The notes below the pieces were generated by a model. That model was not told the origin of the DNA. It searched no databases and saw only the letters and a program-made list of their open reading frames with translations. Made by a program: the position numbers and the translations under genes. A stretch of 64,000 bases of DNA from Patescibacteria group bacterium (GTDB lineage: Bacteria > Patescibacteriota > Microgenomatia > Curtissbacterales > GWA2-41-24). The stretch is from NCBI GenBank assembly GCA_038063735.1, contig JBBTUN010000004.1, forward strand, positions 106,646 to 170,645. Direction: 5' to 3'. Positions 3,874 through 64,000 of this stretch are shown piece after piece. The first letter of the stretch is position 1; each line of letters opens with the position of its first letter.

Positions 3874-3876
3874 TAA

Positions 3877-5655: not shown

Positions 5656-5664
5656 AATTAACTT

Positions 5665-7251: not shown

Positions 7252-7273
7252 AAATACTCACAAGGGAGCATAA

Positions 7274-12456: not shown

Positions 12457-12462
12457 TCATAA

Positions 12463-45434: not shown

Positions 45435-45436
45435 AA

Positions 45437-47208: not shown

Positions 47209-47246
47209 ATCGACGACATTGTAATTAATTGTTTAGTCAAATACAA

Positions 47247-47954
47247 TCAACCCTTTTTATATGCAAATAAAGCTCTGGCTATGTTTAGGTCTTCCATATC
47301 ATCTACGTCAATTGATTCTAACTTACTAGTAAGAATGTAACCAGACCGATTTTTAGCAAAAGGATACCTAAGCGCTTTTTTAATAAAATCCTTCTTATAA
47401 ACGTACAAAACGCCATCTATTTCATAATTCTTATCAAAATCTTGTCCACGGATTTTTGAAAAATCATTTGCATAGATAAACTCCAATAGTTCTTTGTTTA
47501 TTTTAAGAATCCAGTTAGAAGGGAATTTAGTTTGTTTTACAGAAAATATTGCGTCAAGCTTATCCCAATTCCCCCAAAGCTTTTTAATGCCAGAGATGAT
47601 GGTAGTTGCTGATCTAAAAGGGGAAGTGGGTTGTAACAAGACTACCGTGTCGAATCGCACCCCTTCCTCTTCCAGTGCCTCAACAGAATGTTTCAAAACG
47701 GACAAGGTCGAAGATTTGTCTTTAGCATGTTGGTTAGGTCTTTTTATAATCTTTGCTTCATACCTGGTAGCAGTTTGAGCAATTTCTGCATCATCTGTAG
47801 AAACATAAATCCGACTAGGGAAGTACTTAGAGATTTTGGCAGATAAAATAGTGTATGCAATTAACGGTTTACCATCGATATCTACGACATTTTTTTTAGG
47901 AATTCTCTTCGATCCACCCCGCGCAGGAATAATTGCAATGGCACGGTGTTTCAT
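47247..47954 (-). CDS. CMP-nonulosonic acid synthetase (acylneuraminate cytidylyltransferase, NeuA/LegF family)
   Basis: AIIPARGGSKRIPKKN N-terminal signature. Confidence 0.8.
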   Translation of the reverse strand: MKHRAIAIIPARGGSKRIPKKNVVDIDGKPLIAYTILSAKISKYFPSRIYVSTDDAEIAQTATRYEAKIIKRPNQHAKDKSSTLSVLKHSVEALEEEGVRFDTVVLLQPTSPFRSATTIISGIKKLWGNWDKLDAIFSVKQTKFPSNWILKINKELLEFIYANDFSKIRGQDFDKNYEIDGVLYVYKKDFIKKALRYPFAKNRSGYILTSKLESIDVDDMEDLNIARALFAYKKG

Positions 47955-49244: not shown

Positions 49245-49271
49245 TAGATAATATTCGCTTCTCCATACATC

Positions 49272-49322
49272 ATTTATTCTAAATTATATTCACTTCGCTT
49301 ATGTAATTTATTCTAAATTATA
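49272..49322. repeat. 17-bp perfect direct repeat ATTTATTCTAAATTATA, two copies at 49272-49288 and 49306-49322
   Basis: Seen directly in the sequence. The second copy overlaps the stop codon of 49313-50302. Confidence 0.8.
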
Positions 49323-50302
49323 AGGGCAGGGGGTTTTAAATGAGCGTTATTATTATACCAATCGGCAGTAATTTGTAAACCTTCGTAAAAACTAAATTTC
49401 GGCTGATAGCCAAGTTTTCTAATCTTCGAAATATCTGGAAGACGTCGATTAGTACCGCCTTTTTGTATCTTTCCGGGAATTATTTTTATTTTTTGTCCAA
49501 AAAAATCCGCCACCCCCTGTGCCACCTCATTAATAGCAATTTCCTGATCCGTGCCGATGTTATATATCTCTAAATGTTTGCCATGCTTAATTATAGTTTC
49601 CAGCCCTTTCACAAAATCATCAATGTACACAAATGCTCTCGTCTCCTTGCCGGAACCCTGAATATGAAATTTTACAAGTCCATGATCCTTTTTAGATAAC
49701 TCTCTCATTCTGATAACGAATTGTGGGATTACATGTTCCCACCCCATCTCTGGGCCGAATACATTATGGGGACGGAAAATCATTGCACGTCTAAAATATT
49801 TTCTACCATAATTCGCGACAAAAAGTTCACTTATTATTTTCCCTCCCCCGTAAGAATAGCGGGGGTTTAACAAATCAGGAACAATTAAACGAACATTTTC
49901 CGGCGTCGGCACAACTGGGGGAGTTTGATAAACTTCAGAACTTGAAGCGAAATAAATTTCATCTACACCGTTCCATAAACATGAATCAATTACATTAATA
50001 ATTCCACGCGTGGACACATCTAATACAACTTCTGGCATCGAATAAAAAAACTTAGTGCCGTTTACAGCGGCAAGATGAATTACTCCATCAACACCCTTGC
50101 ATGCGATATTGACAATTTTTGGATCCCTAACGTCGCCGGAAATAAATTCAAAATCATTTACGATATCCTTTAAGCTCTCTAAATTACCTCTCGAATTGTT
50201 ATCTAAAACTCTGGTAGTATAGCCGTTTCTTACCATAGCCCTCGTGACATTCCTACCGATAAACCCGGTGCCTCCAGTCACTAAATATTTTTTTGCAAAC
50301 AT
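49313..50302 (-). CDS. NAD-dependent epimerase/dehydratase (SDR). First gene of the minus-strand nonulosonic-acid operon.
   Basis: VTGGTGFIGRNV motif and YSYGGGK. Confidence 0.7.
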   Translation of the reverse strand: MFAKKYLVTGGTGFIGRNVTRAMVRNGYTTRVLDNNSRGNLESLKDIVNDFEFISGDVRDPKIVNIACKGVDGVIHLAAVNGTKFFYSMPEVVLDVSTRGIINVIDSCLWNGVDEIYFASSSEVYQTPPVVPTPENVRLIVPDLLNPRYSYGGGKIISELFVANYGRKYFRRAMIFRPHNVFGPEMGWEHVIPQFVIRMRELSKKDHGLVKFHIQGSGKETRAFVYIDDFVKGLETIIKHGKHLEIYNIGTDQEIAINEVAQGVADFFGQKIKIIPGKIQKGGTNRRLPDISKIRKLGYQPKFSFYEGLQITADWYNNNAHLKPPALII

Positions 50303-50323
50303 TTTGCTTATCGGCAGTCTTTC

Positions 50324-51241
50324 ATGTATATTCTATGCGATATGTCAAGGCAAAAAATACTCGTTTACGGAATTACAGGGATGACAGGCACAAGATTTGC
50401 CGAACTGGTCAGAGATAAATTTAAAATTATTGGCCCTCCTCGTTTCATTGTCGACCTCACAAATAAGAAACAAGTGAAAAAAAATATCCGAGATGTTAGT
50501 CCAGATCAGATACTTTATTTAGCAGGAATCACTAAAGTAGATGAGGCACAGCAAAATCCTAAAAACGCATATTTACTTAATTCGGAAGCTGTAAAATATG
50601 CTGCGAAAGAGTCAGCTCTCCTAAACATCCCTTTTCATTATGTTTCTACTGATGCTGTGTTTGACGGCAAACTAAAAAACAGACTGTATAAAGAAAATGA
50701 TAAAACTAATCCGATTTCCATTTATGGTAAAAGTAAATTAGCTGGGGAAAAAGTTGTATTAGAATTTTCAAATAAGAATTCTGTCATCAGGACAATAATG
50801 ATATATTCTCCAAATTATCCGCATAAAAAAGATTTTGCCAAGTTTGCTTACGAATCACTAAAATACAAAAAACCAATAACTGGAATAATCGATCAATTTA
50901 TAAATCCAACCTATGTGGACGATTTGGTAAATGGCATCTGCAAAATATTGCAAAAAAGAGAAAGTGGCATTTACCATGTTGCAGCAACAGACAGTACCAC
51001 TAACTTTGAATTTCTAAAAAAAATAGAGAAAACTTTCAAATTCAATAAAAATCTTATTACAGAAACAACATTTAATGAATTTTTCAAAGATAAAACCGCG
51101 CCTAGACAGCAATACAGTAGACTTTCAACCGAAAAATTTAGAAAAAAATTTGGAAACGGAATCCTTCACAAAATAGATCAAGGAATCAATGAATTTAAAA
51201 AACAGATGTCAAAACTAGAAACGCAACCTATTGACGTTTAG
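50324..51241 (+). CDS. RmlD-like NAD(P)H sugar reductase (dTDP-4-dehydrorhamnose reductase family). The start is possibly the ATG at 50342.
   Basis: ILVYGITGMTG motif, a VSTDAVFDG signature and YGKSK. Confidence 0.6.
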   Translation: MYILCDMSRQKILVYGITGMTGTRFAELVRDKFKIIGPPRFIVDLTNKKQVKKNIRDVSPDQILYLAGITKVDEAQQNPKNAYLLNSEAVKYAAKESALLNIPFHYVSTDAVFDGKLKNRLYKENDKTNPISIYGKSKLAGEKVVLEFSNKNSVIRTIMIYSPNYPHKKDFAKFAYESLKYKKPITGIIDQFINPTYVDDLVNGICKILQKRESGIYHVAATDSTTNFEFLKKIEKTFKFNKNLITETTFNEFFKDKTAPRQQYSRLSTEKFRKKFGNGILHKIDQGINEFKKQMSKLETQPIDV

Positions 51242-51994
51242 TCTCACTAAGATCCCGTATAAATACCATCGTACATACTTGGGCAGCCACTTCAATAGTT
51301 TAAATTTAGATTTTCCCACTGTTCTATCTCTCCAAACTGTTGGCACATCTCCGATTTTAAAACCGGCATGATACGCTTTTATTATTATCTCGCAAGAGTA
51401 TTCCCAGCCACCTGTTGACTCGATTTTTATCTTGTCGAAAATATTTCTTTTATACATCTTAAAACCGTTTGATATATCTGTTGTTGGAATTCCCAGTAGA
51501 AAAGGACTAAGCTGGCCAGCAAATCTGGAAAGCAAAGTTTTTAAAAAACCTCCACCAATCTTTTTACCACCTTTTCCATATCTGGATGCACATACAATAT
51601 CAAAGCCATCCTCCATTTTCGTGTACATCTTATTCACTGTTTTCGGTTCATCAGCTAAATCCGCAGGCATGATCACAACCACTTTCCCTTTTGCATTCTT
51701 AATTCCGGTTTTAACTGCGTTTATCACCCCTTTTCCAAAATTGTTTTTCACCAAAATTACGCTTTTAAATTTGCGTTGAAGTTTTCTTGCATATGGAATA
51801 GTATTATCTTCATCAAAATCATAAACGATTAAGATTTCATGAGGGTTTATTACATCTTTTTCTAAAGCAATTATTTGTGTTGTAATGTTCTCACCTTCGT
51901 TATAAACAGGCAAGACAATACTTAAATCAAAATGCTTATTCGAAGAAAAGCTTTGCTTATTCACTTCCAGCCAAATACTTTCTAAGATAAACAA
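51215..51994 (-). CDS. GT2 polyprenyl-phosphate sugar synthase (DPM1-like)
   Basis: LSIVLPVYNEGENI…VIMPADLAD motifs. Confidence 0.7.
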   Translation of the reverse strand: MFILESIWLEVNKQSFSSNKHFDLSIVLPVYNEGENITTQIIALEKDVINPHEILIVYDFDEDNTIPYARKLQRKFKSVILVKNNFGKGVINAVKTGIKNAKGKVVVIMPADLADEPKTVNKMYTKMEDGFDIVCASRYGKGGKKIGGGFLKTLLSRFAGQLSPFLLGIPTTDISNGFKMYKRNIFDKIKIESTGGWEYSCEIIIKAYHAGFKIGDVPTVWRDRTVGKSKFKLLKWLPKYVRWYLYGILVRLNVNRLRF

Positions 51995-53333
51995 GATAAA
52001 TCAAAACGTGGATAGCAGCCAGTAGTGTCAGAAGCCAGTAATGCAAGAGATTTTCAGGAAATGCGACAAAACCACCCCTGACGGGAAATCCGTGAGTTAA
52101 GACTGGGCTTAAGCCAAAAAATATCAGTATTAAATACAGCCTAATATTACTCTTATTAGTGTTGATTATGGCCAAACATAAAGCGGCTAATATCGTGATG
52201 AATAAGTGGTTCGCGTGCACGCCGGTTCTCAAGATAAAATAACTCCAACTTATCATCAAGCTCGCCTGCAACAAACTGCCAACGTCTTTCTTTTTTATTA
52301 AGAAACTCTTCAAGATTGCTATATCAACTAACAGAAAAATCACTCCAGTAATTAATGAAAAAATATGGAGATTATTTTTAATAACCATTACGTACGTCTC
52401 TGGGTAAAATGGTATAAGGACACCATATTGAATAAGATACACGAAATTTAAAGACCCTATTTCAAAATACCAAACGCCATGACTGAAAGCTTTTCTTAAG
52501 GATTCAGCTAAAGAAAATAAAGATAAATGATTTACCAAAAAAACAATAATTAACAAGACAAATACTGACGTAAAGGCCACCAAGAATTTGAATATTGGCA
52601 TGTCAATTTTATATTCGCTCGCAGAATGCCCTAGGCTATTAATCCACGGATGAATGCGAGAGAATACATACTTTCGAGGACTGCTGTGTATTTTTGCTCG
52701 CTCATGTAAACTTAAAGAATAATACCGATGACTTTCAGTCTTCGGAAGTTTATACCGCTGCCCATTTTTTATTATGAAATAAAACAGAAACACTGGTAGC
52801 ATCATAATAGCAATCCATTTCACCAATACCGCCAAAGCAAAACAAATTCCGGAAGGAAGATACTTCCGTCGAGCGAATAAGGCCAAAGAGAAAATTACAT
52901 ATGGCGCAAAGGTAATATCTAAAGTGGTGAATGCCTGCGAAATAATGGCAAAATACAATCCCCCCAAATAAAGTCCAGAGACAACAGCAATGCTTGTCCA
53001 AATTGATTTTCGCCTCAAAATAGTAGATAAGTAAATTAAAGAAACCCATGTTGCTAAATAATAGACCAGCAACATTAGTTTTATCCCTATCATCCAGCTG
53101 ACGCCAAAAACTGCAGCTGCTTTCATTGCAAGCCAGAGATTAATGAAAGCGAAAGGCGGGTAATCAGTAGTCCAATAATTGTAGTTGGCATTAATACTGT
53201 TACTAATAATAGTGTCACTAACACTGGTATTGATAATAGAATAAGCATTCAGGGGACCCCATCTATCAATATGAGCTGTCCATTCCAGCCAAACGTCCAT
53301 ATTCCCCAGTACCATAATTTGGGAAAAAGACAA
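51957..53333 (-). CDS. Polytopic membrane protein (GT-C-like). The N-terminus is probably incomplete or frameshifted; see the 53266-53448 ORF.
   Basis: At least 11 TM segments. The annotated start is TTG, and the nearest ATG is at 53315. An upstream out-of-frame ORF encodes a TM helix. Confidence 0.4.
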   Translation of the reverse strand: MSFSQIMVLGNMDVWLEWTAHIDRWGPLNAYSIINTSVSDTIISNSINANYNYWTTDYPPFAFINLWLAMKAAAVFGVSWMIGIKLMLLVYYLATWVSLIYLSTILRRKSIWTSIAVVSGLYLGGLYFAIISQAFTTLDITFAPYVIFSLALFARRKYLPSGICFALAVLVKWIAIMMLPVFLFYFIIKNGQRYKLPKTESHRYYSLSLHERAKIHSSPRKYVFSRIHPWINSLGHSASEYKIDMPIFKFLVAFTSVFVLLIIVFLVNHLSLFSLAESLRKAFSHGVWYFEIGSLNFVYLIQYGVLIPFYPETYVMVIKNNLHIFSLITGVIFLLVDIAILKSFLIKKKDVGSLLQASLMISWSYFILRTGVHANHLFITILAALCLAIINTNKSNIRLYLILIFFGLSPVLTHGFPVRGGFVAFPENLLHYWLLTLLAAIHVLIYLVYLRKYLAGSE

Positions 53334-53584
53334 TTATGGGCAAAGACAAAAATATGAGAGCAAAAACAATTAATAATCTCTTAATTTGAACCATAATAGA
53401 TGAAAATAGTTTGAGTATTACATTGTTTGAAGAAAAAAATATTTTCAAATCTCTTGTAGCAAGTTACTTTACATCCATGCAATATCAATACCAAATTCAC
53501 TTCCTCAAACAAACTCTCTTGATTTTTTAATACCACCTATTTGGTATTATTTCTCTCATTAAAACCGATAAAGTAATAGATAAC

Positions 53585-54319
53585 TTAACTTTTTTTCATC
53601 CCAAAACCAACCACCCACGCACCAAAAAACCGAGCAAAAGGAGTTTTTCCTAAAATGCCGTCTATAACATTGTAACATTTAAGCAAAGGTTTAGTTTTCC
53701 CCGCGATATAACAAAAGGCTATACCTGATTTTATTTGAATTTTTGTATCAAACCCTGCTTTTGAAAAAGTTTCCCCAATTTCTTTTGCTGTCAACAACCT
53801 TTCGTTAGATGTTATTCCTATATTCGAATGCAAAGGGGATGATTTAGAACGATAAATCCAAAATGCCGGGTTAAAATAATGAGGATCGTAAGAAAAGAAT
53901 GTTCCTCTAGGTCTTAAAATACGATGACCCTCTTTTGCAACTAGTTCGAAATTGGGAAAATGGTGTAATATACCAGAATAACAGGCAACGTCTACAGAAG
54001 AAGATTTTATTCTTAAATTTTCTATGTCTCCAACCATAAAATCAATTTTGGGAAAGTCCTTTTGTGCTCTTTTGATGCAACCACGCGAAATATCAACCCC
54101 GATAATCTTGCAGTTAGGATATGCTTGATATAAGTGGCTGGTGAACGCCCCGCTTCCGCAACCCAAATCGTAAATAATTTTATTTTTTCGTGGTGGGATA
54201 AGATCAGTCATCCACGATATCATTTCTAAATATCCGTCTTTATCAAAAACGTCATATCCACCTTGCTTGTCAAAGTGGTCAAAAAATTTTATTTCTGCCT
54301 TTTTATTTTGCAATATCAT
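53585..54319 (-). CDS. Class I SAM-dependent methyltransferase
   Basis: IIYDLGCGSGAFT motif I. Confidence 0.65.
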   Translation of the reverse strand: MILQNKKAEIKFFDHFDKQGGYDVFDKDGYLEMISWMTDLIPPRKNKIIYDLGCGSGAFTSHLYQAYPNCKIIGVDISRGCIKRAQKDFPKIDFMVGDIENLRIKSSSVDVACYSGILHHFPNFELVAKEGHRILRPRGTFFSYDPHYFNPAFWIYRSKSSPLHSNIGITSNERLLTAKEIGETFSKAGFDTKIQIKSGIAFCYIAGKTKPLLKCYNVIDGILGKTPFARFFGAWVVGFGMKKS

Positions 54320-54377
54320 TAGGTAATAATTCGTTAATTTTACATATTTTCTGACTCTGGATGATAGAGATCAGCTT

Positions 54378-54386
54378 TGTTATCAT
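54378..54386 (+). promoter_or_regulatory. Candidate extended -10 promoter element TGtTATCAT upstream of 54411
   Basis: TGnTATcAT lies about 25 nt upstream of the ATG, in a divergent intergenic region. Confidence 0.2.
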
Positions 54387-54410
54387 ATTGGGCACAACTT
54401 TCAAAGGACA

Positions 54411-56090
54411 ATGAATTTTTCTAAAAGGATACCTTTCGTATTTATTATTTCGACACTTTTTGTTAGTTTTGCCTTAAGGTTTTATGCATTAGGTCAAGTG
54501 CCGAATGGTTTGTCGCCAGATGAAGTTGATGTCGGCTACAACGCTTTTTCTATAATCAAAACTCACAAAGATGTCTACGGGAGAGCCTTCCCGCTATTTT
54601 TCCAATCACTTGACGACTATAAAGCTGGGCTTCCGATATACCTTTCGGTAATCGGTATAAAATTGTTTGGATTATCAGATTATTCAATAAGAGCGATCCC
54701 GGCACTTTTTGGCGCACTTACCCCGATTCTATTTTTCTTTTTTGCCAAATTGCTTTATCCAGAGAAGAAAAAATTTCCTTTTGTCATAATGATTTTAGCC
54801 ACATTTGAACCTTGGGGTATAGCAATTTCAAGAGCCATGATTTTTTACTCGGAATATGTCTTTTTGTGTTTACTAGTTTTAATTACATTTTTAATAGGTA
54901 TGAAAAAAAATATGAAGAATGTTTTATATGTCTCAGGAGCACTTTTGGGCCTTACGCCTTACGTTTATTATTCGTCATTTATTTATATGCCGCTTCTCTT
55001 TGTAGCAGTAAGTTTAATTTATAAGGATTTTATATTTAAAAATTTAAAGACTTGCACTATTAGCTTATTGTTTGTTCTTGTTGTTTCTTTTCCGGCCATA
55101 TCTCTTTACTTAAATCCTCAAAACAGAAACCGTTTTAACGCAATTTCTCTCTTTAATCCAGATACCACTTTGACGCTTTCCATAAAAGAGCAGACGAGCG
55201 ACATTGAAGAAAAGTTACCTTTTTCCGGCTATGTTCATAATCGCAGAATTATTTATGCAAGCGCATTCCTTGATAATTACTTCGATTACTTCAATTTAGA
55301 TTATCTTTTTGTTAATGCAAAAAACATACGTTATTTTTATACAAACTATGTCGGTCTTTTTTACCTTTTTGCTATACCCTTCTTTTTGTTTGGTCTATTT
55401 AAAATAATCACAAGAAGGAAAAAAGATGACTTATTCATTTTAGCTTTAATTATAATCGGACCTATTTCAGCAGCTGTCACACTTGGCTCACCCTTTCCCC
55501 ATCGTGGACTGCTTTTTTTGATAGGAGTTCAAGTCGTTTGTGCGCTTGGACTAACTGCTTTTTTTGATAATTTCTTAAAAAGAAAGCAATGGCAATATAA
55601 AGCCGCAATCATTCTTATAATTTTTGCTTATTTTTTAAATGTGTACTTTTTCATTCACCAATACTTTATTCATTCACCACAAGAATTTAACGCTGAAAGT
55701 AATAACGGAGCTTGGTTTGCAACTGTTAGGGACGTTATGCCATTTGTAAGAAAGAATAAATCCAATTACGAAACTATCATATTTTCGTGGTCTTACAGAA
55801 AATTAGTCCCGGGAGTTTATTACGCATTTTATAACAAGACATCACCTTTTGTTTTTCAATCCAAGTCTGCTCTTTGGACTAACGAACCACCATCATATAG
55901 GCAAATATACGATAAGATCGAAAACATTGAATTCAGACCAATAGATTGGGAAAACGACAAAAGCAGAATTAAAACACTTTTGATCGGATACCCGGAAGAG
56001 TTTCCTCCTGACGTAAAAAATGTGGTTAACAAAACATACTTACCCAATGGTCAAATACATCTCCTTTTTGTTGAAGTGAAAAAAGACTAG
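54411..56090 (+). CDS. GT-C family glycosyltransferase (PMT/ArnT-like)
   Basis: LSPDEVDVGYNAFSIIKTHKDVYGRAFPLFF loop-1 motif, highly similar to the 2191/5665 paralogs. Confidence 0.65.
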   Translation: MNFSKRIPFVFIISTLFVSFALRFYALGQVPNGLSPDEVDVGYNAFSIIKTHKDVYGRAFPLFFQSLDDYKAGLPIYLSVIGIKLFGLSDYSIRAIPALFGALTPILFFFFAKLLYPEKKKFPFVIMILATFEPWGIAISRAMIFYSEYVFLCLLVLITFLIGMKKNMKNVLYVSGALLGLTPYVYYSSFIYMPLLFVAVSLIYKDFIFKNLKTCTISLLFVLVVSFPAISLYLNPQNRNRFNAISLFNPDTTLTLSIKEQTSDIEEKLPFSGYVHNRRIIYASAFLDNYFDYFNLDYLFVNAKNIRYFYTNYVGLFYLFAIPFFLFGLFKIITRRKKDDLFILALIIIGPISAAVTLGSPFPHRGLLFLIGVQVVCALGLTAFFDNFLKRKQWQYKAAIILIIFAYFLNVYFFIHQYFIHSPQEFNAESNNGAWFATVRDVMPFVRKNKSNYETIIFSWSYRKLVPGVYYAFYNKTSPFVFQSKSALWTNEPPSYRQIYDKIENIEFRPIDWENDKSRIKTLLIGYPEEFPPDVKNVVNKTYLPNGQIHLLFVEVKKD

Positions 56091-56091
56091 A

Positions 56092-57768
56092 TCAGTCTAT
56101 TACCCCCAGTACATCAATATAGGGACCTGGTCTTATGAGTCTAAAATATGGGAATATTGCTGTTGTGTCAAAAAGAGCCTCGGGGATATCGGTATCGTAG
56201 ATCTTGCTCCCAGTAGGACTAAAATGTGCAACCAGCCTGTAACGTTTCGGATCAAGCTCTAATAATCTGTCCGAAGATGAATTGTAATTGTCAATAACAA
56301 TTCTTGAGTTGCTTATTAACAAAGCTTTATTTGTATAATTTACCTTGCTATCGCCTGCTGTAGAAATTGCGTTAGCATACATTATATCTCTAACGTTGTC
56401 GGCATATGTATTCCCACTAAGTTTTGCAGCTCTTCCATAATATCCCGGGTTCATCTCCTGCACTTTTTTTATAACAAGCGCATTCGGAACATACCCATAA
56501 TACCTGTGAGACGTAGCTACGAGCGGGGTGCTCTTTTCTATATTCTGGTCCAACCATTGTCTTATAAGATCATAGGTCGATGTTTGAACAAGAACCAAGT
56601 TAAAATAAACAGAATTAAAAAAAGTTAAAATCATAACAATCACAAAAAACAAGTGTCTATATCTGACTCGTAGTACAAATTCATAAAAAACATATCCGGC
56701 CAACACTGGTAAAAAACAAAAAGAAATCAATAAATAGCGACTAAGGGGGGGAAAAAAAAGAACCCATATTAAAATATTTATAACAAAAAAAAGTATAAAA
56801 GCCCGATGTATCCCGTGCTTTTTGTATTTTGTAAGTGCAAAAATCACAAAAAAAAGAATGATAATTGGATCTGTAAAAAAAACATTAAGAATCGACTTGC
56901 CAGCGTTTAAAAAAGAATTTAGGTCCGTTATATTTAACTTAACCAATTCAACGCTGTCCGACCGGTTTGTCGGATCCAAAATTCGAAATACTTTTGACCC
57001 TAAACTAACTAAATTTAGAACGAATACAATCATGGTATAAAAAGTTAGCCCGGCAAGTAATCCTCTAATATATTTTTTAATTTTAAGTTCAGAAAAAAAA
57101 ATGATTAGGCAAATAAGTAATGCGCTCATCGCCCCAAACTGATGGAAACCAAAGGAAACAGCGCTAAAAAAAAATGAAACTAACACATACTTTGGGAACT
57201 TGTTTTTGGTTTTTACGGCTTTTACTGCCCAGTAAACAGCAACTATTGAGAAGAAAACTGCTTCTGACCAAGGTCTTGCTTGATGTGAAATTAAGACAAG
57301 ATTATATGAGGCAGCTGTAAGTAGAGAGCTAAATAATGCGACTTCCTTTTTATAAAACAGTAGTCTAGCAAGTTTATAACTAACCAATATTGCCAAAACA
57401 CCAAATAATGCCGAAATAACCCTAGGTATAAATAGAAAATATCCTTCGTGAGTTACTATCAGAAATTCTAAATCAGAAATAGAATGAATCTTGCCAGTGA
57501 TAAATAAAACAAATGATGCAAGAGCTATGAATGGAATTTGAAGATAGGCACCTAAAGGACCGTAGTTTCCTAAGGTAAATAGTGTTTTGCTAGCAAGCAT
57601 ATTAAGAGCGCTAAGGTGGTAAACAGCTTCATCACCCGAAGCATATAATATTGGAAAACCAATAGTTAAATTAATTGTTCTTAACAATAAACCAATTGCA
57701 ATGATAAAAAGAAGCAAATATTTATCTGGAATATTGGTAACAATACTCTTCAAACTTTGAAACAACAT
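56092..57768 (-). CDS. GT-C family glycosyltransferase (ArnT/PMT-like). Contains a G7A8 homopolymeric tract.
   Basis: ILYASGDEAVYHLSALNML loop-1 DE motif. About 12 TM segments and a roughly 170-aa C-terminal soluble domain. Confidence 0.6.
   Translation of the reverse strand: MLFQSLKSIVTNIPDKYLLLFIIAIGLLLRTINLTIGFPILYASGDEAVYHLSALNMLASKTLFTLGNYGPLGAYLQIPFIALASFVLFITGKIHSISDLEFLIVTHEGYFLFIPRVISALFGVLAILVSYKLARLLFYKKEVALFSSLLTAASYNLVLISHQARPWSEAVFFSIVAVYWAVKAVKTKNKFPKYVLVSFFFSAVSFGFHQFGAMSALLICLIIFFSELKIKKYIRGLLAGLTFYTMIVFVLNLVSLGSKVFRILDPTNRSDSVELVKLNITDLNSFLNAGKSILNVFFTDPIIILFFVIFALTKYKKHGIHRAFILFFVINILIWVLFFPPLSRYLLISFCFLPVLAGYVFYEFVLRVRYRHLFFVIVMILTFFNSVYFNLVLVQTSTYDLIRQWLDQNIEKSTPLVATSHRYYGYVPNALVIKKVQEMNPGYYGRAAKLSGNTYADNVRDIMYANAISTAGDSKVNYTNKALLISNSRIVIDNYNSSSDRLLELDPKRYRLVAHFSPTGSKIYDTDIPEALFDTTAIFPYFRLIRPGPYIDVLGVID
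56745..56759. repeat. Homopolymeric tract GGGGGGGAAAAAAAA (G7 then A8) inside the CDS 56092-57768. It encodes FFPP on the minus strand.
   Basis: Seen directly. It is the longest G/C run in the 64-kb window, and the genome is about 30% GC. Confidence 0.8.
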
Positions 57769-59023
57769 ATTTTAATTCAACTTTTCCGATTCCAGGATAA
57801 ACGCCCATCCAAAAACCATTGCTCATAATCTTATCACTAAATTTTAGATTTCCAACCACCCTATGTTTTATTTTGCAATATGCTGGATGACGCAATAAAT
57901 TTCCTGCAAAAAGACTTCTAGTTTCTATTTTGTTACTTTGCAAATAATTAACTATCGCTAGCCTATTAAATGGTGCGTTGTCTCGAATCGCCAACATAAA
58001 TCCAAACCAACATGGATCAGATTTAATATCCCACTTCGGCAGAACAAAAAAGTTATCAAATTTCTTAAGTTCCTCGTATAGAAACTGGTGGTTTTCTTGT
58101 CTTGCTTTGATAAAACCGGGGAGCTTATCAAGCTGTGCGACTCCTATTGCAGCCTGAATGTCTGTAGCCTTTAAATTAAATCCAATATGTGAATATGTAT
58201 ACTTATGGTCATATCCATAAGGTAACTTGCCAAGTTTGAAAGAAAACCGTCTACCACACCTGTTATCCTGACCTGTCCTGCACCAGCAGTCTCGTCCCCA
58301 CTCGCAAAAGGAATTTACAAGAACATGTAAATCGGGGTTACTGGTAACAACAGCTCCGCCTTCCCCCATTGTTATTTGATGGGCAGGGTAAAAGGAAAAA
58401 GTGCCTATGTCCCCAAACGTAGATACATAACGGCCGGCAAACTTTGAACCCAATGCGTCACAGCAATCTTCAATAAGCCAGAGTCCGTGCTTCTTGGCAA
58501 TTTTAGCTACTTTCTCAGCGTCAAATGGATTCCCGAGGGTATGGGCAAGTATTATAGCCTTCGTTTTGTTTGTGATCGCTTTTTCGATCATTTCAACTTC
58601 AGCGTTTCTTGTTTCAAGGTTAACGTCAACAAAAACAGGTACAGCGCCAAATTGAATGATTGGGTTTACTGTTGTAGGGAAAGAGCAAGCTGCCGTGATA
58701 ACCTCGTCCCCGGGTAAAATTCTCCTTTTGCCAAGTTTTGGAGAAGTCAACGCATAAAAAGCGGCTAAGTTGGCGCTTGAACCGGAATTTGTTATAGTCA
58801 CTAACTTTACGCCCAAAAAATTTCCTAATTTTTTGCAAAACTCTTCAGCATAATGACCTTCAGTTAACCAAAATTCCAATGATGCCTCGACAGCCTTTTC
58901 AATTTCATTATGATCAAAGACACGTCCTGCAACTTTTACAGGAGTGACCCTAGGAATAAATATCTGTTTTTTATGATTTTCGGTATAATACCTACGAATA
59001 AATGCCTGAAGCTGTTTGTCCAT
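57722..59023 (-). CDS. CDP-4-keto-6-deoxyhexose 3-dehydrase (E1; RfbH/DdhC/AscC family of the DegT superfamily)
   Basis: The N-terminus resembles RfbH (…ASLEFWLTEGHYAEEF…NSGSSANL). The exact E1 [2Fe-2S] spacing C-X57-C-X1-C-X7-C is present: DCC…(57)…CWCRTGQDNRC. Confidence 0.7.
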   Translation of the reverse strand: MDKQLQAFIRRYYTENHKKQIFIPRVTPVKVAGRVFDHNEIEKAVEASLEFWLTEGHYAEEFCKKLGNFLGVKLVTITNSGSSANLAAFYALTSPKLGKRRILPGDEVITAACSFPTTVNPIIQFGAVPVFVDVNLETRNAEVEMIEKAITNKTKAIILAHTLGNPFDAEKVAKIAKKHGLWLIEDCCDALGSKFAGRYVSTFGDIGTFSFYPAHQITMGEGGAVVTSNPDLHVLVNSFCEWGRDCWCRTGQDNRCGRRFSFKLGKLPYGYDHKYTYSHIGFNLKATDIQAAIGVAQLDKLPGFIKARQENHQFLYEELKKFDNFFVLPKWDIKSDPCWFGFMLAIRDNAPFNRLAIVNYLQSNKIETRSLFAGNLLRHPAYCKIKHRVVGNLKFSDKIMSNGFWMGVYPGIGKVELKYVVSKFEEYCYQYSR

Positions 59024-59064
59024 ACGCTATATATTAGCTGCCAAACAAAAACAAGTAAATATTA

Positions 59065-59997
59065 ATGAAAAAAATAAGTATTGTTACCCCCCTCTTTAAC
59101 GAAGAAGAAAATGTCAAAGAGCTTTATAAACAAATAAGCGATTTGATGGCAAAAGAAAAAAACTATCAATTCGAAATTATAGCGGTTGAACACGGTTCAA
59201 GCGATTCTACGTTCAAAATCTTAAAATCCATACGCAAAAAAGATCCAAGGCTGAAAATTATTCAACTTTCTAGAAATTTCGGTAATGTTGATGCAGCAAT
59301 TAGCGCCGGACTCAATTTTTCAAGCGGGGATGCAGCTGTGATTTTAATGGGAGACCTACAAGAACCACCCGCACTCATTTCGAGTTTCTTAAGAAAGTGG
59401 GAAGAAGGTTACGAGATTGTATACGGAACGATTAAAAAAAGAGCAGATAATTCACTTATTCGTAAATTTAACTCCCTACTGTTCTATAAAATATTAAGGT
59501 TTGCAACCGGAAAAATGTTTCCTGAAAATGCGTCAGATTATAGGCTTGTCGATAAAAAAGTATACGAGGTGATAAATAGCATGGGGGAAAGAAACAAATT
59601 CCTTAAAGGACTAACATTCTGGACTGGCTTTACTCAAATTGGTATCCCATACAATAGATCGCCGAGATTTGCTGGCGAGTCTAAAGCAGATTTCATTACT
59701 GTGCTTAAGGTAGCCGTAAATGGGATATTATCATTTTCCTACATACCGCTAAGGCTAGTGACAATATTGGGGTTTGTACTTGCAATAGCTTCTTTCTTCA
59801 TACTGTCTTTAGAAATCATTTTATTTTTAGCCTTGGGTAGAGAAGCAAAAGGAGTTCTAACAATTGTAGTTTTAATTAGCTTTTTGTTTGGCATGTTATT
59901 TGTGATCCTTGGTGTTATTGGAGAATATATTGCCAGAATTTACGACGAAGTTAAGCAAAGACCAATTTATATAGTCAAGAAAAAAATTGGTATCTAA
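59065..59997 (+). CDS. GT2 polyprenyl-phosphate sugar synthase with C-terminal TM helices (ArnC/GtrB-like)
   Basis: SIVTPLFNEEENV…IIAVEHGSSDST…DLQEPP motifs. Two hydrophobic helices at the C-terminus. Confidence 0.7.
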   Translation: MKKISIVTPLFNEEENVKELYKQISDLMAKEKNYQFEIIAVEHGSSDSTFKILKSIRKKDPRLKIIQLSRNFGNVDAAISAGLNFSSGDAAVILMGDLQEPPALISSFLRKWEEGYEIVYGTIKKRADNSLIRKFNSLLFYKILRFATGKMFPENASDYRLVDKKVYEVINSMGERNKFLKGLTFWTGFTQIGIPYNRSPRFAGESKADFITVLKVAVNGILSFSYIPLRLVTILGFVLAIASFFILSLEIILFLALGREAKGVLTIVVLISFLFGMLFVILGVIGEYIARIYDEVKQRPIYIVKKKIGI

Positions 59998-60635
59998 GAA
60001 GACAAGTGCCCAATGTTCACCATTCTGACATAGGATCTATCGGCAACACCATTAGCACTTTTAGGAAGCTTCACCCACTTAACATCTCCGTTTACAACTG
60101 TCTCCATAAGAGGTATTTTCCTCACAGTTTTAAATCCGCAACGTTTATAAAGATTCACTGCTCTTACATTATCATTAAATGTTATTAAATAGAGCCTGTC
60201 TATATTTAAATTTTTAAAACCCCAACTGACTAAGGTGGTAACACATGTAGTCATCAGCCCAGGAATATTTTTTAAACCTCTCACGACATTATCTAACTCG
60301 CATGAGTTATCCCTTCGTCTGTACCTATAAAAACCTAGATGCCCATAAAACCTACCGTACTCATCCTCAATTGCGAACAAAATCCTGTCCTGATTATCAA
60401 TGACTAAATCCTTTAACCATTTTTTTGTCCTTTTGACAGTAACTTTAAACGTGTCACCAAACCAGAAAGCCTCCCTCCTTCTCCACAAAGCTATATTCTT
60501 TATAAGAATTTTATTTTCAACATCTGCATTGTTTATTACGCGAAGAAAAATTATTATTGAGTGAATTTTGCCAACTTTAATAACAAATTTAGGCCTCTTC
60601 TTCAGAGCGTTTATTTTACTTGAATAATGAGACAT
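59994..60635 (-). CDS. GNAT-family N-acetyltransferase-like protein
   Basis: 213 aa. The C-terminal NVRAVNLYKRCGFK is a GNAT motif A/B-like region. Confidence 0.5.
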   Translation of the reverse strand: MSHYSSKINALKKRPKFVIKVGKIHSIIIFLRVINNADVENKILIKNIALWRRREAFWFGDTFKVTVKRTKKWLKDLVIDNQDRILFAIEDEYGRFYGHLGFYRYRRRDNSCELDNVVRGLKNIPGLMTTCVTTLVSWGFKNLNIDRLYLITFNDNVRAVNLYKRCGFKTVRKIPLMETVVNGDVKWVKLPKSANGVADRSYVRMVNIGHLSS

Positions 60636-60646
60636 TAATTTAGAGC

Positions 60647-61756
60647 TTATTTAGTTAGCTTGCGGACTAAACAGTCTGAAATATAATTTACTTGTTCTTC
60701 CGTAAGATTCACACCACTTGGAAGATTAATACCATTTAGGCCAAGATGATGGGCGACAGGTGTGTTAATTTCCTTATACATAGGAAACATGCTAACCGGA
60801 TAGAAAAATGGCCTTGTGTCAACGAGCTGTTTAGCCATTGCCCTCATTAATTGATCGCGGGTATATTCAAATTTTTTGTCTAAAACAATAGATGACATCC
60901 ATTTATTTGACCTAGTATTTGTTTTGTCAGGATTCATGGATATTCCTCCTAATTTGCCAAGTTTGCGAGCATACCATTTAAATATTTTATTCTTTCTTCT
61001 GACAAACTCCTCAATACGCTCAATTTGAGCCAGTGCGAGGGCTGCTTGGATATTGGACATGTGATAGCTATATCCCACCCGTATTTGCCAAAATTTTCGC
61101 TTCGGATCTTTTCCATGCTCGTTTAGCATTCTTGCTTTGTCCAAATTCTTTTTGCTATTTGTAACGAGCATCCCACCAATTCCAGAAATAGCTATTTTTG
61201 CCCCCTGAAAGCTATATGCTCCAAAATCTCCGAATGTGCCAGGCTTTTTCCCCTTATATATAGAGCCTAATGCTGGAGCAGCATCCTCAACTACATAAAG
61301 TCCATGCTTTTTCGCTATGTTCATAATCTCATCCATCTCACAAAGATTTCCGTACATGTAAACAGGCATAATAGCTTTAGTACGGCTACTGATAGCCTTT
61401 TTAATTTTATCTGGGTCAATGCACCATGTGTCTGGCAAAACATCTATAAAAATTGGTTTTGCTCCAAGACGCATAACTACATCGGAAGCTGCGTAAAAAG
61501 CTAAATCAGGCAAAATAACTTCATCCCCCGGCTTGATATCCAAGCAGGCAAGTGCAAGTTGCATAGCGCCGGTCGCCCCAGACACAGCCATTACGTATTT
61601 GGAACCAATATAATTTGCAAATTTTCTTTCAAGTTTTTCTTTGTAATCAAACATATGATAATTCCACCCGTTAGTGACTGCATCATTTACATAATTAATT
61701 TCTTTTTGAGTAATAGAAGGGCCAGCCGTTAATATCATCCCGTGTGGTCTATACAT
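60647..61756 (-). CDS. DegT/DnrJ/EryC1/StrS family PLP-dependent sugar aminotransferase
   Basis: 369 aa with family-typical organisation: GDEVILPD…AIMPVYMYG…GGMLVTN. Confidence 0.8.
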   Translation of the reverse strand: MYRPHGMILTAGPSITQKEINYVNDAVTNGWNYHMFDYKEKLERKFANYIGSKYVMAVSGATGAMQLALACLDIKPGDEVILPDLAFYAASDVVMRLGAKPIFIDVLPDTWCIDPDKIKKAISSRTKAIMPVYMYGNLCEMDEIMNIAKKHGLYVVEDAAPALGSIYKGKKPGTFGDFGAYSFQGAKIAISGIGGMLVTNSKKNLDKARMLNEHGKDPKRKFWQIRVGYSYHMSNIQAALALAQIERIEEFVRRKNKIFKWYARKLGKLGGISMNPDKTNTRSNKWMSSIVLDKKFEYTRDQLMRAMAKQLVDTRPFFYPVSMFPMYKEINTPVAHHLGLNGINLPSGVNLTEEQVNYISDCLVRKLTK

Positions 61757-61778
61757 GATAAGTAATAAATGTTACAAG

Positions 61779-63581
61779 CTATAAGTTATTTTCAGCAGTT
61801 GATTTTACAATCATATTGGATTCTAGCTCCTTGGGCAATAGCAAAGGAAAAAGATCCTCATATGGTCTGGATACCATAGAACCGTCCGCCCGTTTCACCG
61901 AATGAATTCTAGGCACAACCAATTGCCAATGCCCTGACCTAACGTCACACAATACTGGGCCAGGATAAGAGAGTACTTGTTTTATCTTTTTGTCGATTTC
62001 TCGAGTGTTGTTAATTCTTATTCCACGAATTCCATAAGAGCTAGCTATTTTCAAAATATCTGGAAACCACAATCCCGTTTTTGGGCTCTCACCCATGAGT
62101 CGACCGGCCATATGTGTTTTTTGAGTATGTCTAATTAGCAAATAGCCATTATTGTTAATGACAAAAATTTTAATAGGCAAATTGTTTTGCTTTACTGTAG
62201 CCAGTTCTTGAATATTCATTTGTAAACAGCCATCCCCCGTTACAACAATCGTTCTTTTACCTCCAGAAGCTATACATGCTCCTACGCTACTTGGCCAGTA
62301 TCCCATTGTTGAAATTCCTCCTGTCGTGATAAACCTTTGACCCTTTTTTAAATTCCACGTTTGGCAAACAACATGAAATGGGGAGCTGGTATCAACAACT
62401 ATGGTGTCACGATCGGATGCAAATTTAGATAACCGTTCTGTAAAGTAATACGAATTTACTAGAGCCTCTCTTTTGTAATGGGGCAAAACCATAGGATATT
62501 TTTTTCTCCAGGAAGCACATACACGAGTCCAATTATCAAAGCCTGGAAGCCTCTTTCTATTGATAGATTTTAGTAGTTTTTCAAGAAATACTTTTACGTC
62601 TTTATTTATTTTAAAGTCGATATTGATACCTGGTTTATTTAATTCGAAAACATCTATGTCGACTACAATTTTTTTTGCATGTCTACCCCAATCCTTAGCA
62701 TCATAACCAATAATACCTGTATCAAGCCTTGTTCCCAGGCAGATAATTAAATCGGCATTTTGAATAGCAAAATTTGCAGCTCGCTCTGGGTATAGTCCCG
62801 GCCTGCCAACAAAAAGTGGGTTAGTGCTTTCAATAAGGTCAATGCCAAGTCTTGTTGTTTCAACTGGAATTTTTAAAGTTGAGACTACTTCTTTAAAAAG
62901 TTTCTCGGCCATTCCTGTTCTAATGCCCTGACCAGCCAAGATAAGTGGTCGGCGTGATTTATAGATTATTTCCAAAACTCTGTTTATCTCCTCACTGGAA
63001 ATTTCAGCTATTTTAGGAAATTTTGGTTCAACAAATTTTTGTAAAAGCTTTTCGGGAACTTCCATCCTTTGAATGTCCAGTGGTACCTCTATCCATACAG
63101 GACCGCGCCTTCCAGACATCGCCCAAAAATAAGCCTCCTCCATGTAATGCTTAACACTTGCAGGGTCATCTATTGTTTTAAAGTACTTGGTTACAGATTT
63201 GGCAATTGGTGCGATGTTAATCCCTTGAAGGCCGAACTGCCTAATTTTTGTTTCCTGCATATAAGAAACCGTAGAGTGTGATGATTGCCCGGAAATGACC
63301 AGCATAGGGGCAGAATCTACATACGCGCCAACAACCCCATTTAAGACATTTATTGCTCCCGGGCCTGCCGTTACCATAGCCACACCCATTTTCCCACTAA
63401 TTCTGCCATATGCTTCAGCCGCCATTCCGGTCGCTTGTTCATGATGATTGAATACAGGTTTAATTTTTTTATTTCGAAAGACCGCATCATTTAAAAACAT
63501 TGCCTGTCCGCCAGTAACCATAAACACAGTGTCAACTCCTCTGCTTTCCAAGAATTTCACAATGTAGTCAGATACAGTCAT
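61779..63581 (-). CDS. Thiamine-diphosphate-dependent enzyme of the acetolactate synthase/YerE family
   Basis: 600 aa. N-terminal TPP_enzyme_N (GVDTVFMVTGGQAM…HHEQATGMAAEAYGR), a central domain and a C-terminal TPP-binding domain (GDGCLQMNIQELAT). Confidence 0.75.
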   Translation of the reverse strand: MTVSDYIVKFLESRGVDTVFMVTGGQAMFLNDAVFRNKKIKPVFNHHEQATGMAAEAYGRISGKMGVAMVTAGPGAINVLNGVVGAYVDSAPMLVISGQSSHSTVSYMQETKIRQFGLQGINIAPIAKSVTKYFKTIDDPASVKHYMEEAYFWAMSGRRGPVWIEVPLDIQRMEVPEKLLQKFVEPKFPKIAEISSEEINRVLEIIYKSRRPLILAGQGIRTGMAEKLFKEVVSTLKIPVETTRLGIDLIESTNPLFVGRPGLYPERAANFAIQNADLIICLGTRLDTGIIGYDAKDWGRHAKKIVVDIDVFELNKPGINIDFKINKDVKVFLEKLLKSINRKRLPGFDNWTRVCASWRKKYPMVLPHYKREALVNSYYFTERLSKFASDRDTIVVDTSSPFHVVCQTWNLKKGQRFITTGGISTMGYWPSSVGACIASGGKRTIVVTGDGCLQMNIQELATVKQNNLPIKIFVINNNGYLLIRHTQKTHMAGRLMGESPKTGLWFPDILKIASSYGIRGIRINNTREIDKKIKQVLSYPGPVLCDVRSGHWQLVVPRIHSVKRADGSMVSRPYEDLFPLLLPKELESNMIVKSTAENNL

Positions 63582-63586
63582 CTAAT

Positions 63587-64000
63587 TTATATTAATGCTT
63601 CAATTGGGTTTTCTCTCTCTATGGCGCTTTTTTTCTGTTTTAGGTTTGCCGCAATATCCACAATTATATCTTCTTGGCCAGCCACTATCTTCCTTCGCCC
63701 CAGTTCAACAAGTATGTCTCGGGCATCCACACCAAATCTTTTCGCAGCCATTCTAGCATGTGGAGCAAATCCACTAAAAACTCCGGCAAGTCCACTCGTA
63801 AGGCTGATGGCACTTATTTCCTGCGGTTTTTTCATAATCTTTGCGGTTATCTTTTCGCTATTGTCCATAAGTTTAAAAAGATCAAGATCTAATTTGTAGC
63901 CCTTCCTCATTAGAACGGCAACGATTACTTCAAGCTGACAATTACCTGCGCCTGCCCCCAACCCCCTAGATGTAGTGTCGATTATCTTAGCACCAGCCTC
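63587..64000 (-). CDS. 4-hydroxy-2-oxovalerate aldolase (DmpG/MhpE/BphI family), C-terminal part. The gene continues beyond the window end.
   Basis: The frame is open to position 64000. It has GLGAGAGNCQLE and DARDILVELGRRKIVAGQEDIIVDIA, matching the DmpG catalytic-domain end and the DmpG_comm domain. Confidence 0.65.
   Translation of the reverse strand, partial: EAGAKIIDTTSRGLGAGAGNCQLEVIVAVLMRKGYKLDLDLFKLMDNSEKITAKIMKKPQEISAISLTSGLAGVFSGFAPHARMAAKRFGVDARDILVELGRRKIVAGQEDIIVDIAANLKQKKSAIERENPIEALI

Follow-up and report, generated by a model that had tools for sequence, protein, structure and literature searches.

Which sugar is handled by a membrane-anchored GT2-family glycosyltransferase that lies among sugar-biosynthesis genes of a Patescibacteria group bacterium, and by what route might that sugar reach the cell surface? 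The gene in question, at 59065-59997, is part of a 64-kb stretch of contig JBBTUN010000004.1 (hereafter, the window), which has a low GC content throughout (~35%) and a gene content almost wholly related to surface glycans. An earlier note on this DNA grouped the GT2 with a GNAT acyltransferase and a DegT aminotransferase, beside two GT-C glycosyltransferase genes, in an Arn-like module following the logic of the L-Ara4N pathway. All of these genes are present at the positions given there, with GNAT and DegT on one side of the GT2, and RfbH and the two GT-Cs on the other. Here, we report a comparative analysis of the locus that, on balance, leads us to favor a different assignment, namely that the region encodes the loading and transfer steps of a three-component glycosylation system of the Gtr type, the cargo of which would be a CDP-activated, C-4 acyl-branched 3,6-dideoxyhexose.

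A GtrB-like enzyme and its clade

By homology, the GT2 belongs to the GtrB/ArnC-type polyprenyl-phosphate glycosyltransferases and is nearer to GtrB than to ArnC. The Pfam domain Glycos_transf_2 spans residues 5-168, and the full length of the protein aligns with the NCBIfam models PgfS (4e-72, the best NCBIfam match) and ArnC (2e-50), in both cases below the cut-off; no NCBIfam model is passed by the GT2, the GNAT or either GT-C. Among solved structures, phmmer matches it to GtrB (5EKE/5EKP) at 8e-74 over residues 3-306 and to ArnC at 6e-46, and the alignment to GtrB continues through the transmembrane (TM) helices of the latter. The earlier note had read GtrB/ArnC-like TM helices at the C-terminus and proposed topology prediction as a check. 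Two C-terminal membrane helices were indeed found, as borne out by this full-length alignment, by two hydrophobic segments in the hydropathy profile (~225-257 and ~262-293), and by an AlphaFold2 model (pLDDT 79.7), in which residues 210-224 form a juxtamembrane helix and residues 227-257 and 263-297 two long helices. In a Foldseek search with this model, 22 of the 22 top matches are GtrB or ArnC, aligned over ~310 columns with TM-scores of 0.61-0.73, the exception being the apo-octamer GtrB 9nye_A (0.55-0.56). The nearest named relatives come from Candidatus Curtissbacteria and Gottesmanbacteria, and metagenomic contigs, from Hainich groundwater and from elsewhere, encode an identical protein. 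For the GT-C and the GNAT, NCBI lists 100% identical proteins under "Patescibacteria group bacterium", in line with an uncultured, Microgenomates-type member of the Candidate Phyla Radiation (CPR).

A scan for GT2 homologues across one genome per GTDB species yielded 80 loci, which were searched with the window's proteins, and the GT2 sequences were placed in a neighbor-joining tree. We numbered the related loci with the prefix L, where L001 is the same contig, running beyond the window end. A branched-sugar context was recorded when homologues of RfbF, RfbG, RfbH or the thiamine diphosphate (ThDP)-dependent enzyme of the window lay within 10 kb of the GT2. All 25 GT2 sequences with this context fall in one clade of 28 members, and the context is found in none of the 57 relatives outside the clade, which are 38-45% identical to the GT2 of the window. 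When the GTDB loci alone are counted, the context is present for 19 of the 22 in the clade and 0 of the 57 outside it (Fisher p = 1.7e-15, for sequences that are not independent of one another). The clade includes archaea (Methanoregula, Methanosarcinaceae, Methanoperedens, Methanocella, Methanotrichaceae, Nanoarchaeota and Woesearchaeota) as well as bacteria (Roizmanbacteria, Paceibacterota and Actinomycetota); for the high-GC actinobacterial loci L026 and L031, the genes are represented by tblastn positions only. Chance placement of the GT2 within a very large glycan locus was considered and rejected, because the link to RfbF/G/H and the ThDP enzyme is clade-specific and crosses domains of life. 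By the same comparison, the constant partners of the GT2 are, judging from homology, RfbF/RfbG/RfbH, a branching enzyme that is YerE/ErwE-like and ThDP-dependent, and a pair resembling DmpFG.

Of the three clade members that lack the context, L024 is a contig of 2 kb and L029 is an Omnitrophota locus crowded with proteins of 10-11 TM helices. In the third, L021 from Nanoarchaeota, the GT2 is surrounded by radical-SAM/B12 enzymes, short-chain dehydrogenases/reductases (SDRs), a DUF2079 membrane protein and a split transketolase. The surroundings of the GT2 in L021 are another branched-sugar context: at 913-8723 of that locus, it is flanked by three radical-SAM enzymes, two of them with B12-binding domains, and the split transketolase, a gene set that suggests a heavily C-modified sugar. 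Two records labeled as 'Bifidobacterium breve' metagenome-assembled genomes, both high-GC (L026 and L033), also carry a clade GT2 with RfbF/G/H and the ThDP enzyme; in the tree, their neighbors are Actinomycetota sequences, including Solirubrobacteraceae, so the species label looks doubtful.

In methanogens, the GT2 is embedded in a same-strand operon with the order RfbF-GtrA-RfbG-GT2-ThDP-DmpF-DmpG-SDR-SDR-RfbH, after which come either Wzm/Wzt or another GtrA together with a YfhO-type protein, with YfhO/DUF6044-type membrane proteins nearby. On a Methanoregulaceae chromosome, the GtrB-like enzyme is the sole glycosyltransferase of the operon, and the genes upstream are unrelated housekeeping genes. 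The Wzt ATPase of the Methanoregulaceae operon (L013, 18671-20874) carries a Wzt_C carbohydrate-binding domain, which implies that a terminal glycan modification is recognized in an archaeon.

Among the closer relatives, with GT2 sequences 66-79% identical to that of the window, the GT2 always has RfbH on one side and the 3' end of the sugar operon on the other, as it does in the window, despite differing tailoring genes. The layout of L005 and L007 (GT2 75-79% identical) is that of the window. In L006 (78%), a split transketolase takes the place of the ThDP/DmpFG trio and DegT and GNAT are kept. In L009-L012 (66%), the ThDP enzyme and DmpFG are kept and DegT and GNAT give way to a single SDR of 297-302 amino acids beside the ThDP gene, in the position of ErwF.

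The clade also carries a distinctive active-site signature, which emerged when its alignment was compared with the other relatives and with GtrB. We use GtrB numbering, with ArnC equivalents in parentheses, and take the roles of residues from the GtrB and ArnC structure papers (PMC12698845, PMC12690121). According to these, D43 (D48) is among the substrate-coordinating residues; D94 (D100), the first aspartate of a "universally conserved" DxD motif, is the proposed catalytic base; D96 and Q98 are metal ligands; R122 (R128), R125, K132 and R197 contact the lipid phosphate; R200 is among the key active-site residues; D157 is a candidate catalytic residue; and W207 is a gate aromatic (PMC12698845, PMC12690121). 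The GT2 of the window has E42-H43, M95-G96-D97 in place of DxD, I123 and A208. Throughout the clade, the D43 position is N or H, the R122 position is I or V and the W207 position is A, and a glutamate occupies position 42 in 27 of the 28 members. At the D94 position, M, N, A or C predominate and D occurs in a single member of the 28 (L021), as against D in all 57 relatives outside the clade and likewise in GtrB and ArnC. Retained in the clade, by the numbering of the window GT2, are the metal ligands (D97 and Q99, the second Asp and the Gln of DxDLQ), R126, R198, R201 and D158, and GtrB K132 corresponds to R133. Thus, as far as residues can tell, one family-defining feature, the presence of both DxD aspartates, is missing from this GT2, and the pattern fits the same enzyme class with an altered donor and, possibly, a relocated catalytic base.

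A predicted branched CDP-sugar and its tailoring genes

The earlier note took the E1 and ThDP enzymes of the cluster to imply a sugar different from L-Ara4N. This was correct and is central here, given RfbH, the YerE-like enzyme and an erwiniose-type gene set. The product of the rfbH gene (Table 1) is a DegT-family protein, and a role as an aminotransferase was considered and excluded: it is identified as the E1 dehydrase RfbH by its NF011936 score, by H215 in place of the lysine and by the iron-sulfur motif C246-x-C248-x7-C256. It matches Yersinia E1 (3BCX) at 9e-150. Its gene overlaps the GT-C gene 56092-57768 by 47 bp, a link between the CDP pathway and a GT-C.

Past the window end, in L001, the minus-strand operon continues upstream of the aldolase with an acetaldehyde dehydrogenase (DmpF/ErwJ-like), an NDP-hexose 4,6-dehydratase (RfbG) and a glucose-1-phosphate cytidylyltransferase (RfbF), and Wzm/Wzt-type ABC transporter genes lie beyond a plus-strand methyltransferase gene. 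The aldolase and the acetylating acetaldehyde dehydrogenase score 409.8 and 362.7 bits, both above NCBIfam equivalog cut-offs. For RfbF, glucose-1-phosphate cytidylyltransferase is the best NCBIfam match, at 262.6 bits and below the cut-off of 300, and RfbG has generic NCBIfam matches only. The best PDB match of the ThDP enzyme is JanthE (8RPH, 2e-115), a YerE-like ketone-accepting carboligase, with PpYerE at 8e-66.

The ThDP gene and the DmpG/DmpF pair are neighbors, an arrangement shared with the erwiniose cluster of Pectobacterium atrosepticum (PMC9306805). In the erwiniose scheme, the acceptor is CDP-4-keto-3,6-dideoxyglucose; ErwI and ErwJ, a BphI/BphJ-like aldolase and dehydrogenase, yield 4-hydroxy-2-oxopentanoate, which the ThDP enzyme ErwE joins at C-4, pyruvate not being accepted; and ErwF reduces the branch carbonyl (PMC9306805). 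Transaminases are also known as modifiers of such acyl branches (PMC9306805). By analogy, the ThDP enzyme of the window is predicted to attach an acyl branch at C-4 of a CDP-4-keto-3,6-dideoxyhexose.

The DegT aminotransferase, with its Schiff-base lysine K187 within SFQGAK, best matches GDP-perosamine synthase in the PDB (3BN1/3DR4, 1e-82), followed at a distance by ArnB (6.5e-40). The GNAT matches Acetyltransf_3 at 1.4e-11 and, in the PDB search, SpeG-like structures (1e-7) and, weakly, PseH (7e-3), with no link to a characterized sugar N-acetyltransferase. It is predicted to N-acetylate the aminated sugar. Only 20 homologues of the GNAT were detected, the few with a source name being from Patescibacteria or Curtissbacteria and none from outside the CPR, and in every locus examined, the GNAT adjoins the DegT. 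Next to its most distant homologue, in L093, there are a DegT, a split transketolase and an E1-like gene, and no GtrB-like GT2 within 10 kb. A module bounded as GT2, DegT and GNAT, as the earlier note had drawn it, therefore does not hold: the pair is replaced by an SDR in L009-L012 and occurs without the GT2 in L093. Rather, DegT and GNAT behave, in these comparisons, like tailoring enzymes that can be exchanged for others acting on a branched nucleotide sugar. Since they are swapped for one reductase in close relatives, the pair most likely tailors the acyl branch, and the simplest reading is that it would turn the branch carbonyl, which an ErwF would reduce, into an acetamido group.

Both large membrane proteins on the other side of the GT2 are genuine GT-C enzymes, as the earlier note had it, by Pfam, by AlphaFold2/Foldseek comparison and by paralogy. 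The model of 56092-57768 (pLDDT 88.8, pTM 0.90) has only GT-C enzymes among its top Foldseek matches (AglB, STT3, ArnT, ALG9 and Pmt4), and ArnT (5F15) is no closer than the oligosaccharyltransferases, ALG9 or the protein mannosyltransferases. D46-E47 in its loop 1 are invariant. This GT-C, probably co-transcribed with RfbH, is the candidate user of the lipid-linked sugar. The second one, 54411-56090, is convergent with it, has a PDEVD motif after TM1 and is paralogous to the four GT-C genes arrayed in tandem at 680-7251, in particular to 5665-7251 (tblastn 1e-48), which matches PMT_2 and PMT. GT-C-like genes are very dense in the window, numbering at least nine: the four tandem PMT_2-type paralogs on the plus strand (680-2194, 2191-3873, 3877-5655 and 5665-7251) and a fifth on the minus strand (7274-8812), which together make up the five at 680-8812, then 37279-38787, the weakly matching 51957-53333, and the two GT-C genes 54411-56090 and 56092-57768.

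The GT2 is the sole plus-strand gene between RfbH and the GNAT (Table 1). Its start is divergent from that of RfbH across a 41-bp gap, and it converges on the GNAT with a 4-bp overlap at the GNAT stop. Four transcription units are likely: the minus-strand series RfbF-RfbG-DmpF-DmpG-ThDP-DegT-GNAT, with in-window gaps of 5-22 bp; the GT2 by itself; RfbH with the GT-C that it overlaps; and the second GT-C. Promoter and terminator scans over 53300-64000 returned fewer sites than in shuffled sequence and are, therefore, uninformative on these units.

Table 1. Genes around the GtrB-like glycosyltransferase, with positions in the window
Feature	Position	Strand	Characteristics
Second GT-C-like membrane protein	54411-56090	+	559 aa; PMT_2 24.3 bits, 4e-5, just below cut-off
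GT-C glycosyltransferase (GT39/PMT_2-like)	56092-57768	-	558 aa; PMT_2 29.6 bits, above cut-off
RfbH/E1, CDP-6-deoxy-4-hexulose 3-dehydrase	57722-59023	-	NF011936 664 bits vs cut-off 423
GtrB/ArnC-family polyprenyl-phosphate glycosyltransferase	59065-59997	+	310 aa; GT-A domain, juxtamembrane helix, two C-terminal TM helices
GNAT N-acyltransferase	59994-60635	-	213 aa; last gene of minus-strand sugar operon; Pfam Acetyltransf_3/4/1
DegT-family pyridoxal phosphate-dependent sugar aminotransferase	60647-61756	-	369 aa; Pfam 1.8e-106; catalytic K187
YerE/ErwE-like ThDP-dependent carboligase	61779-63581	-	600 aa; TPP_enzyme_N/M/C
4-hydroxy-2-oxovalerate aldolase (DmpG/BphI/ErwI-like), 3' part	63587-64000	-	DmpG_comm 2.4e-28; full-length in L001

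A proposed route to the surface and its alternatives

Homology assigns the enzyme classes, namely a GtrB-type GT2, GT-C enzymes, an E1, a YerE-like ThDP enzyme, an aldolase/dehydrogenase pair, a DegT aminotransferase and a GNAT. Beyond these classes, we infer that the donor of the GT2 is the CDP-sugar of the cluster, that the branch carbonyl is the target of DegT and GNAT, and that the adjacent GT-Cs use the product. The route would then run as follows. RfbF and RfbG, encoded just past the window end, and RfbH/E1, all assigned by homology, would make CDP-4-keto-3,6-dideoxy-D-glucose. The DmpF/DmpG-like pair would convert acetyl-CoA and pyruvate to 4-hydroxy-2-oxopentanoate, from which the ErwE-like ThDP enzyme would add a 3-hydroxybutanoyl branch at C-4, following the erwiniose scheme. 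Where an ErwF/YerF-like reductase would reduce the branch carbonyl in relatives, here DegT would aminate it and GNAT would N-acetylate the amine, as the replacement of genes at the same position suggests. At the cytoplasmic face, the GT2 would take the completed sugar from its CDP-linked form and load it onto polyprenyl phosphate; the lipid-linked sugar would be flipped, and the adjacent GT-Cs, the fold of which is established, would attach the sugar to a surface glycan or protein. In this respect, the L-Ara4N logic of the earlier note survives in part: the carrier-lipid scheme, from a modified nucleotide sugar to polyprenyl phosphate, flipping and GT-C transfer, is the best fit, and membership in the Arn system is not.

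A broader proposal, which strikes us as possible but somewhat short of probable, is that the clade represents an unrecognized GtrB-like lineage of CPR bacteria, DPANN archaea, methanogens and Actinomycetota, the members of which lack the first DxD aspartate and yet load polyprenyl or dolichyl phosphate with CDP-activated, ThDP-branched deoxyhexoses, and that the cargo in the window is an undescribed acetamido-branched sugar.

Several observations weigh against the proposed route. The GT2 is transcribed apart from every neighbor: being on the strand opposite to them, it can share an operon with none. The earlier note would have given up its module if the genes were both transcribed independently and unrelated in function; by strand, transcription of the GT2 is independent, but comparative evidence points to related functions. 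Because the CPR loci come from related genomes, part of their synteny is inherited and not independently selected. The clade dispenses with the first DxD aspartate, the proposed catalytic base, and with R122, so that the chemistry could differ from the model. DegT most resembles a C-4 aminotransferase, perosamine synthase, which leaves amination of the branch over that of C-4 uncertain. No E3 partner of the E1 (FNR-type, AscD/RfbI) appears in the Pfam annotations of the window or L001, or in the archaeal operons. Nor did tblastn with the archaeal proteins detect a GtrA, YfhO or DUF6044 counterpart in the window, and no flippase was identified near the GT2. The open-access literature yielded neither a CDP-dependent GtrB-type member nor this system in CPR bacteria, and the case for donor and function is one of comparative genomics.

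Some of these points, together with others, feed an alternative that we consider unlikely, yet the most serious one. The GT2 might be an ordinary GtrB-like enzyme that makes polyprenyl-phosphate-glucose or -GlcNAc from a UDP-sugar for the GT-Cs of the locus, the CDP-sugar being built into a cytoplasmic polymer by a soluble Leloir enzyme and exported via Wzm/Wzt, with the adjacency reflecting no more than a shared glycan locus. Characterized GtrB-type enzymes all use UDP- or GDP-sugars, a recent review of three-component systems gives UDP-sugars as their donors, and the window's GT-C-like genes, at least nine in number, need lipid-linked donors. A soluble GT2 that could serve as the Leloir transferase for the CDP-sugar is encoded at 51215-51994 and conserved nearby in relatives (L005 and L011), ABC-transporter genes stand at the operon end, and a conventional glycosyltransferase has been proposed to incorporate erwiniose (PMC9306805). 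This alternative, however, does not account for the clade-specific link to RfbF/G/H and the ThDP enzyme across CPR, methanogens, DPANN and Actinomycetota, a link that is absent in the 57 distant relatives; for the Methanoregulaceae operon, in which no other glycosyltransferase accompanies the GtrB-like enzyme; or for the clade-wide replacement of the nucleotide-contacting Asp and other donor-site residues.

The same loading design with another sugar is a further alternative, albeit quite improbable in our judgment. Here, DegT would aminate C-4, and the ThDP enzyme and DmpFG would supply a 3-hydroxybutanoyl donor that the GNAT attaches to the amine, giving an N-(3-hydroxybutanoyl) amino sugar. 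Such amino sugars are common in bacterial glycans, the closest solved relative of DegT is a C-4 aminotransferase, and the ThDP enzyme belongs to the fold family of pyruvate oxidase-type enzymes. Its closest solved relative is, however, a ketone-accepting carboligase; its orthologues in L009-L012, which are 64-65% identical, occur with DmpFG and a reductase and without aminotransferase or GNAT, which is the erwiniose layout; and in L006 and L093, the GNAT and DegT pair accompanies a transketolase-type brancher instead.

Finally, a true Arn-type resistance module, in which a transient N-acyl group protects the amine until lipid loading and is then removed, so that a cationic amino sugar on the lipid anchor lowers the surface charge, recalls the gene types ArnB (DegT), ArnC (GT2) and ArnT (GT-C) and the order of amination and acylation in the Arn pathway, but is scarcely credible given NCBIfam scores of 171.7 bits against a cut-off of 529 for ArnC and 195.9 against 631 for ArnB, the lack of an ArnA-like formyltransferase/decarboxylase, a deacylase and ArnE/F among the genes at 53585-64000 and downstream in L001, the dispensability of the amination/acylation pair in relatives, and a donor pathway based on a CDP-hexose.

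Other glycan gene sets and comparison with known systems

Other parts of the window encode further glycan pathways. At 12088-14384, on the plus strand, there is a row of genes for an SMR/EamA-like protein with 4 TM helices (122 aa), a GT2 without TM helices (226 aa), an SDR and a DUF2304 membrane protein (117 aa). The pairing of GT2 and DUF2304 recalls mycobacterial PpgS/Rv3632, a polyprenyl-phosphate-GalNAc synthase and its small partner, and the row may encode another lipid-phosphate sugar synthase, distinct from the GtrB-like one, along with a candidate flippase resembling ArnE/F; the SMR-like gene (12088-12456) is 47 kb away from the GtrB-like GT2. The segment 30180-38787, probably the 'first' Arn-like module of the earlier note, is more literally Arn-like, with an SDR/decarboxylase-like epimerase, a 244-aa GT2, a UDP-GlcNAc 2-epimerase-like gene and a formyltransferase, along with a GFO oxidoreductase, a UDP-glucose dehydrogenase, a membrane protein and a PMT_2 GT-C.

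On the minus strand, 40491-47954 encodes a nonulosonic-acid pathway of the legionaminic/pseudaminic type (CBS-dehydratase, DegT, hydrolyzing 2-epimerase, formyltransferase, PIG-L deacetylase, NeuB and CMP-transferase), in which the formyltransferase and deacetylase suggest an N-formyl variant; this block adjoins the GT2 region in L007 as well. A second, methyl-branched sugar pathway of the same locus is found at 47961-51241, where an NDP-hexose C-methyltransferase (Methyltransf_13/14) and two SDRs are conserved in L005 and L011.

If the proposed route is correct, three-component extracytoplasmic glycosylation would be extended to CDP-sugars and C-branched deoxyhexoses, and an incorporation route could be assigned to many uncharacterized YerE-like branched-sugar clusters. 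The clade would offer natural variants for testing whether the first DxD aspartate acts, as newly proposed, as the catalytic base in GtrB, ArnC and DPMS, and the locus would provide a concrete prediction of surface-glycan chemistry for uncultivable CPR bacteria and DPANN archaea, and for methanogens.

By sequence and by logic, the closest known systems are GtrA/GtrB/Gtr* and their Gram-positive counterparts, not Arn. Examples include O-antigen glucosylation in Shigella and Salmonella, and CsbB/GtcA/YfhO, GacI/GacL and PgfS/PgfM in Gram-positive bacteria. The GT2 of the window shares with these systems the arrangement of a GT-A domain, juxtamembrane helices and two TM helices, with 36-38% full-length identity to Synechocystis GtrB (sll0501), the closest solved structure, as well as the partnership with GT-C-fold transferases; in the archaeal and Paceibacterota relatives (L013, L016, L018, L025 and L035), GtrA is encoded in the same operon. 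It differs in its predicted donor, a CDP-linked C-branched 3,6-dideoxyhexose as opposed to UDP-Glc or UDP-GlcNAc, in the clade-wide replacement of D94, D43, R122 and the W207-type gate, in the lack of a GtrA gene in the window, and in its location within a nucleotide-sugar biosynthesis cluster as opposed to a small gtr cassette.

The erwiniose and yersiniose pathways (Pectobacterium ErwE/F/I/J; Yersinia pseudotuberculosis YerE/YerF; PMC9306805) have in common with the locus RfbF/G/H, a YerE-like carboligase and a BphI/BphJ-like pair, and, in relatives L009-L012, an ErwF-like reductase. In the window, by contrast, an aminotransferase and a GNAT occupy the position of the ErwF/YerF-type reductase, predicting an acetamido-branched sugar; incorporation is predicted to proceed via a lipid-phosphate carrier and a GT-C, unlike that by a cytoplasmic Leloir glycosyltransferase; and the hosts are CPR bacteria and archaea, compared with Gram-negative producers of lipopolysaccharide.

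The resemblance to the Arn pathway (PmrHFIJKLM) lies in the predicted order of events: amination, N-acylation, GtrB/ArnC-type loading on polyprenyl phosphate and GT-C transfer. The Arn-like assignment itself is not upheld: the GT2 is nearer to GtrB, a GNAT is found in place of the ArnA-type formyltransferase, the module has no UDP-GlcA decarboxylase, ArnD-type deacylase (deformylase) or ArnE/F, the predicted donor derives from a CDP-hexose and not from a UDP-sugar, and the aminotransferase/GNAT pair can be replaced by a reductase in relatives.

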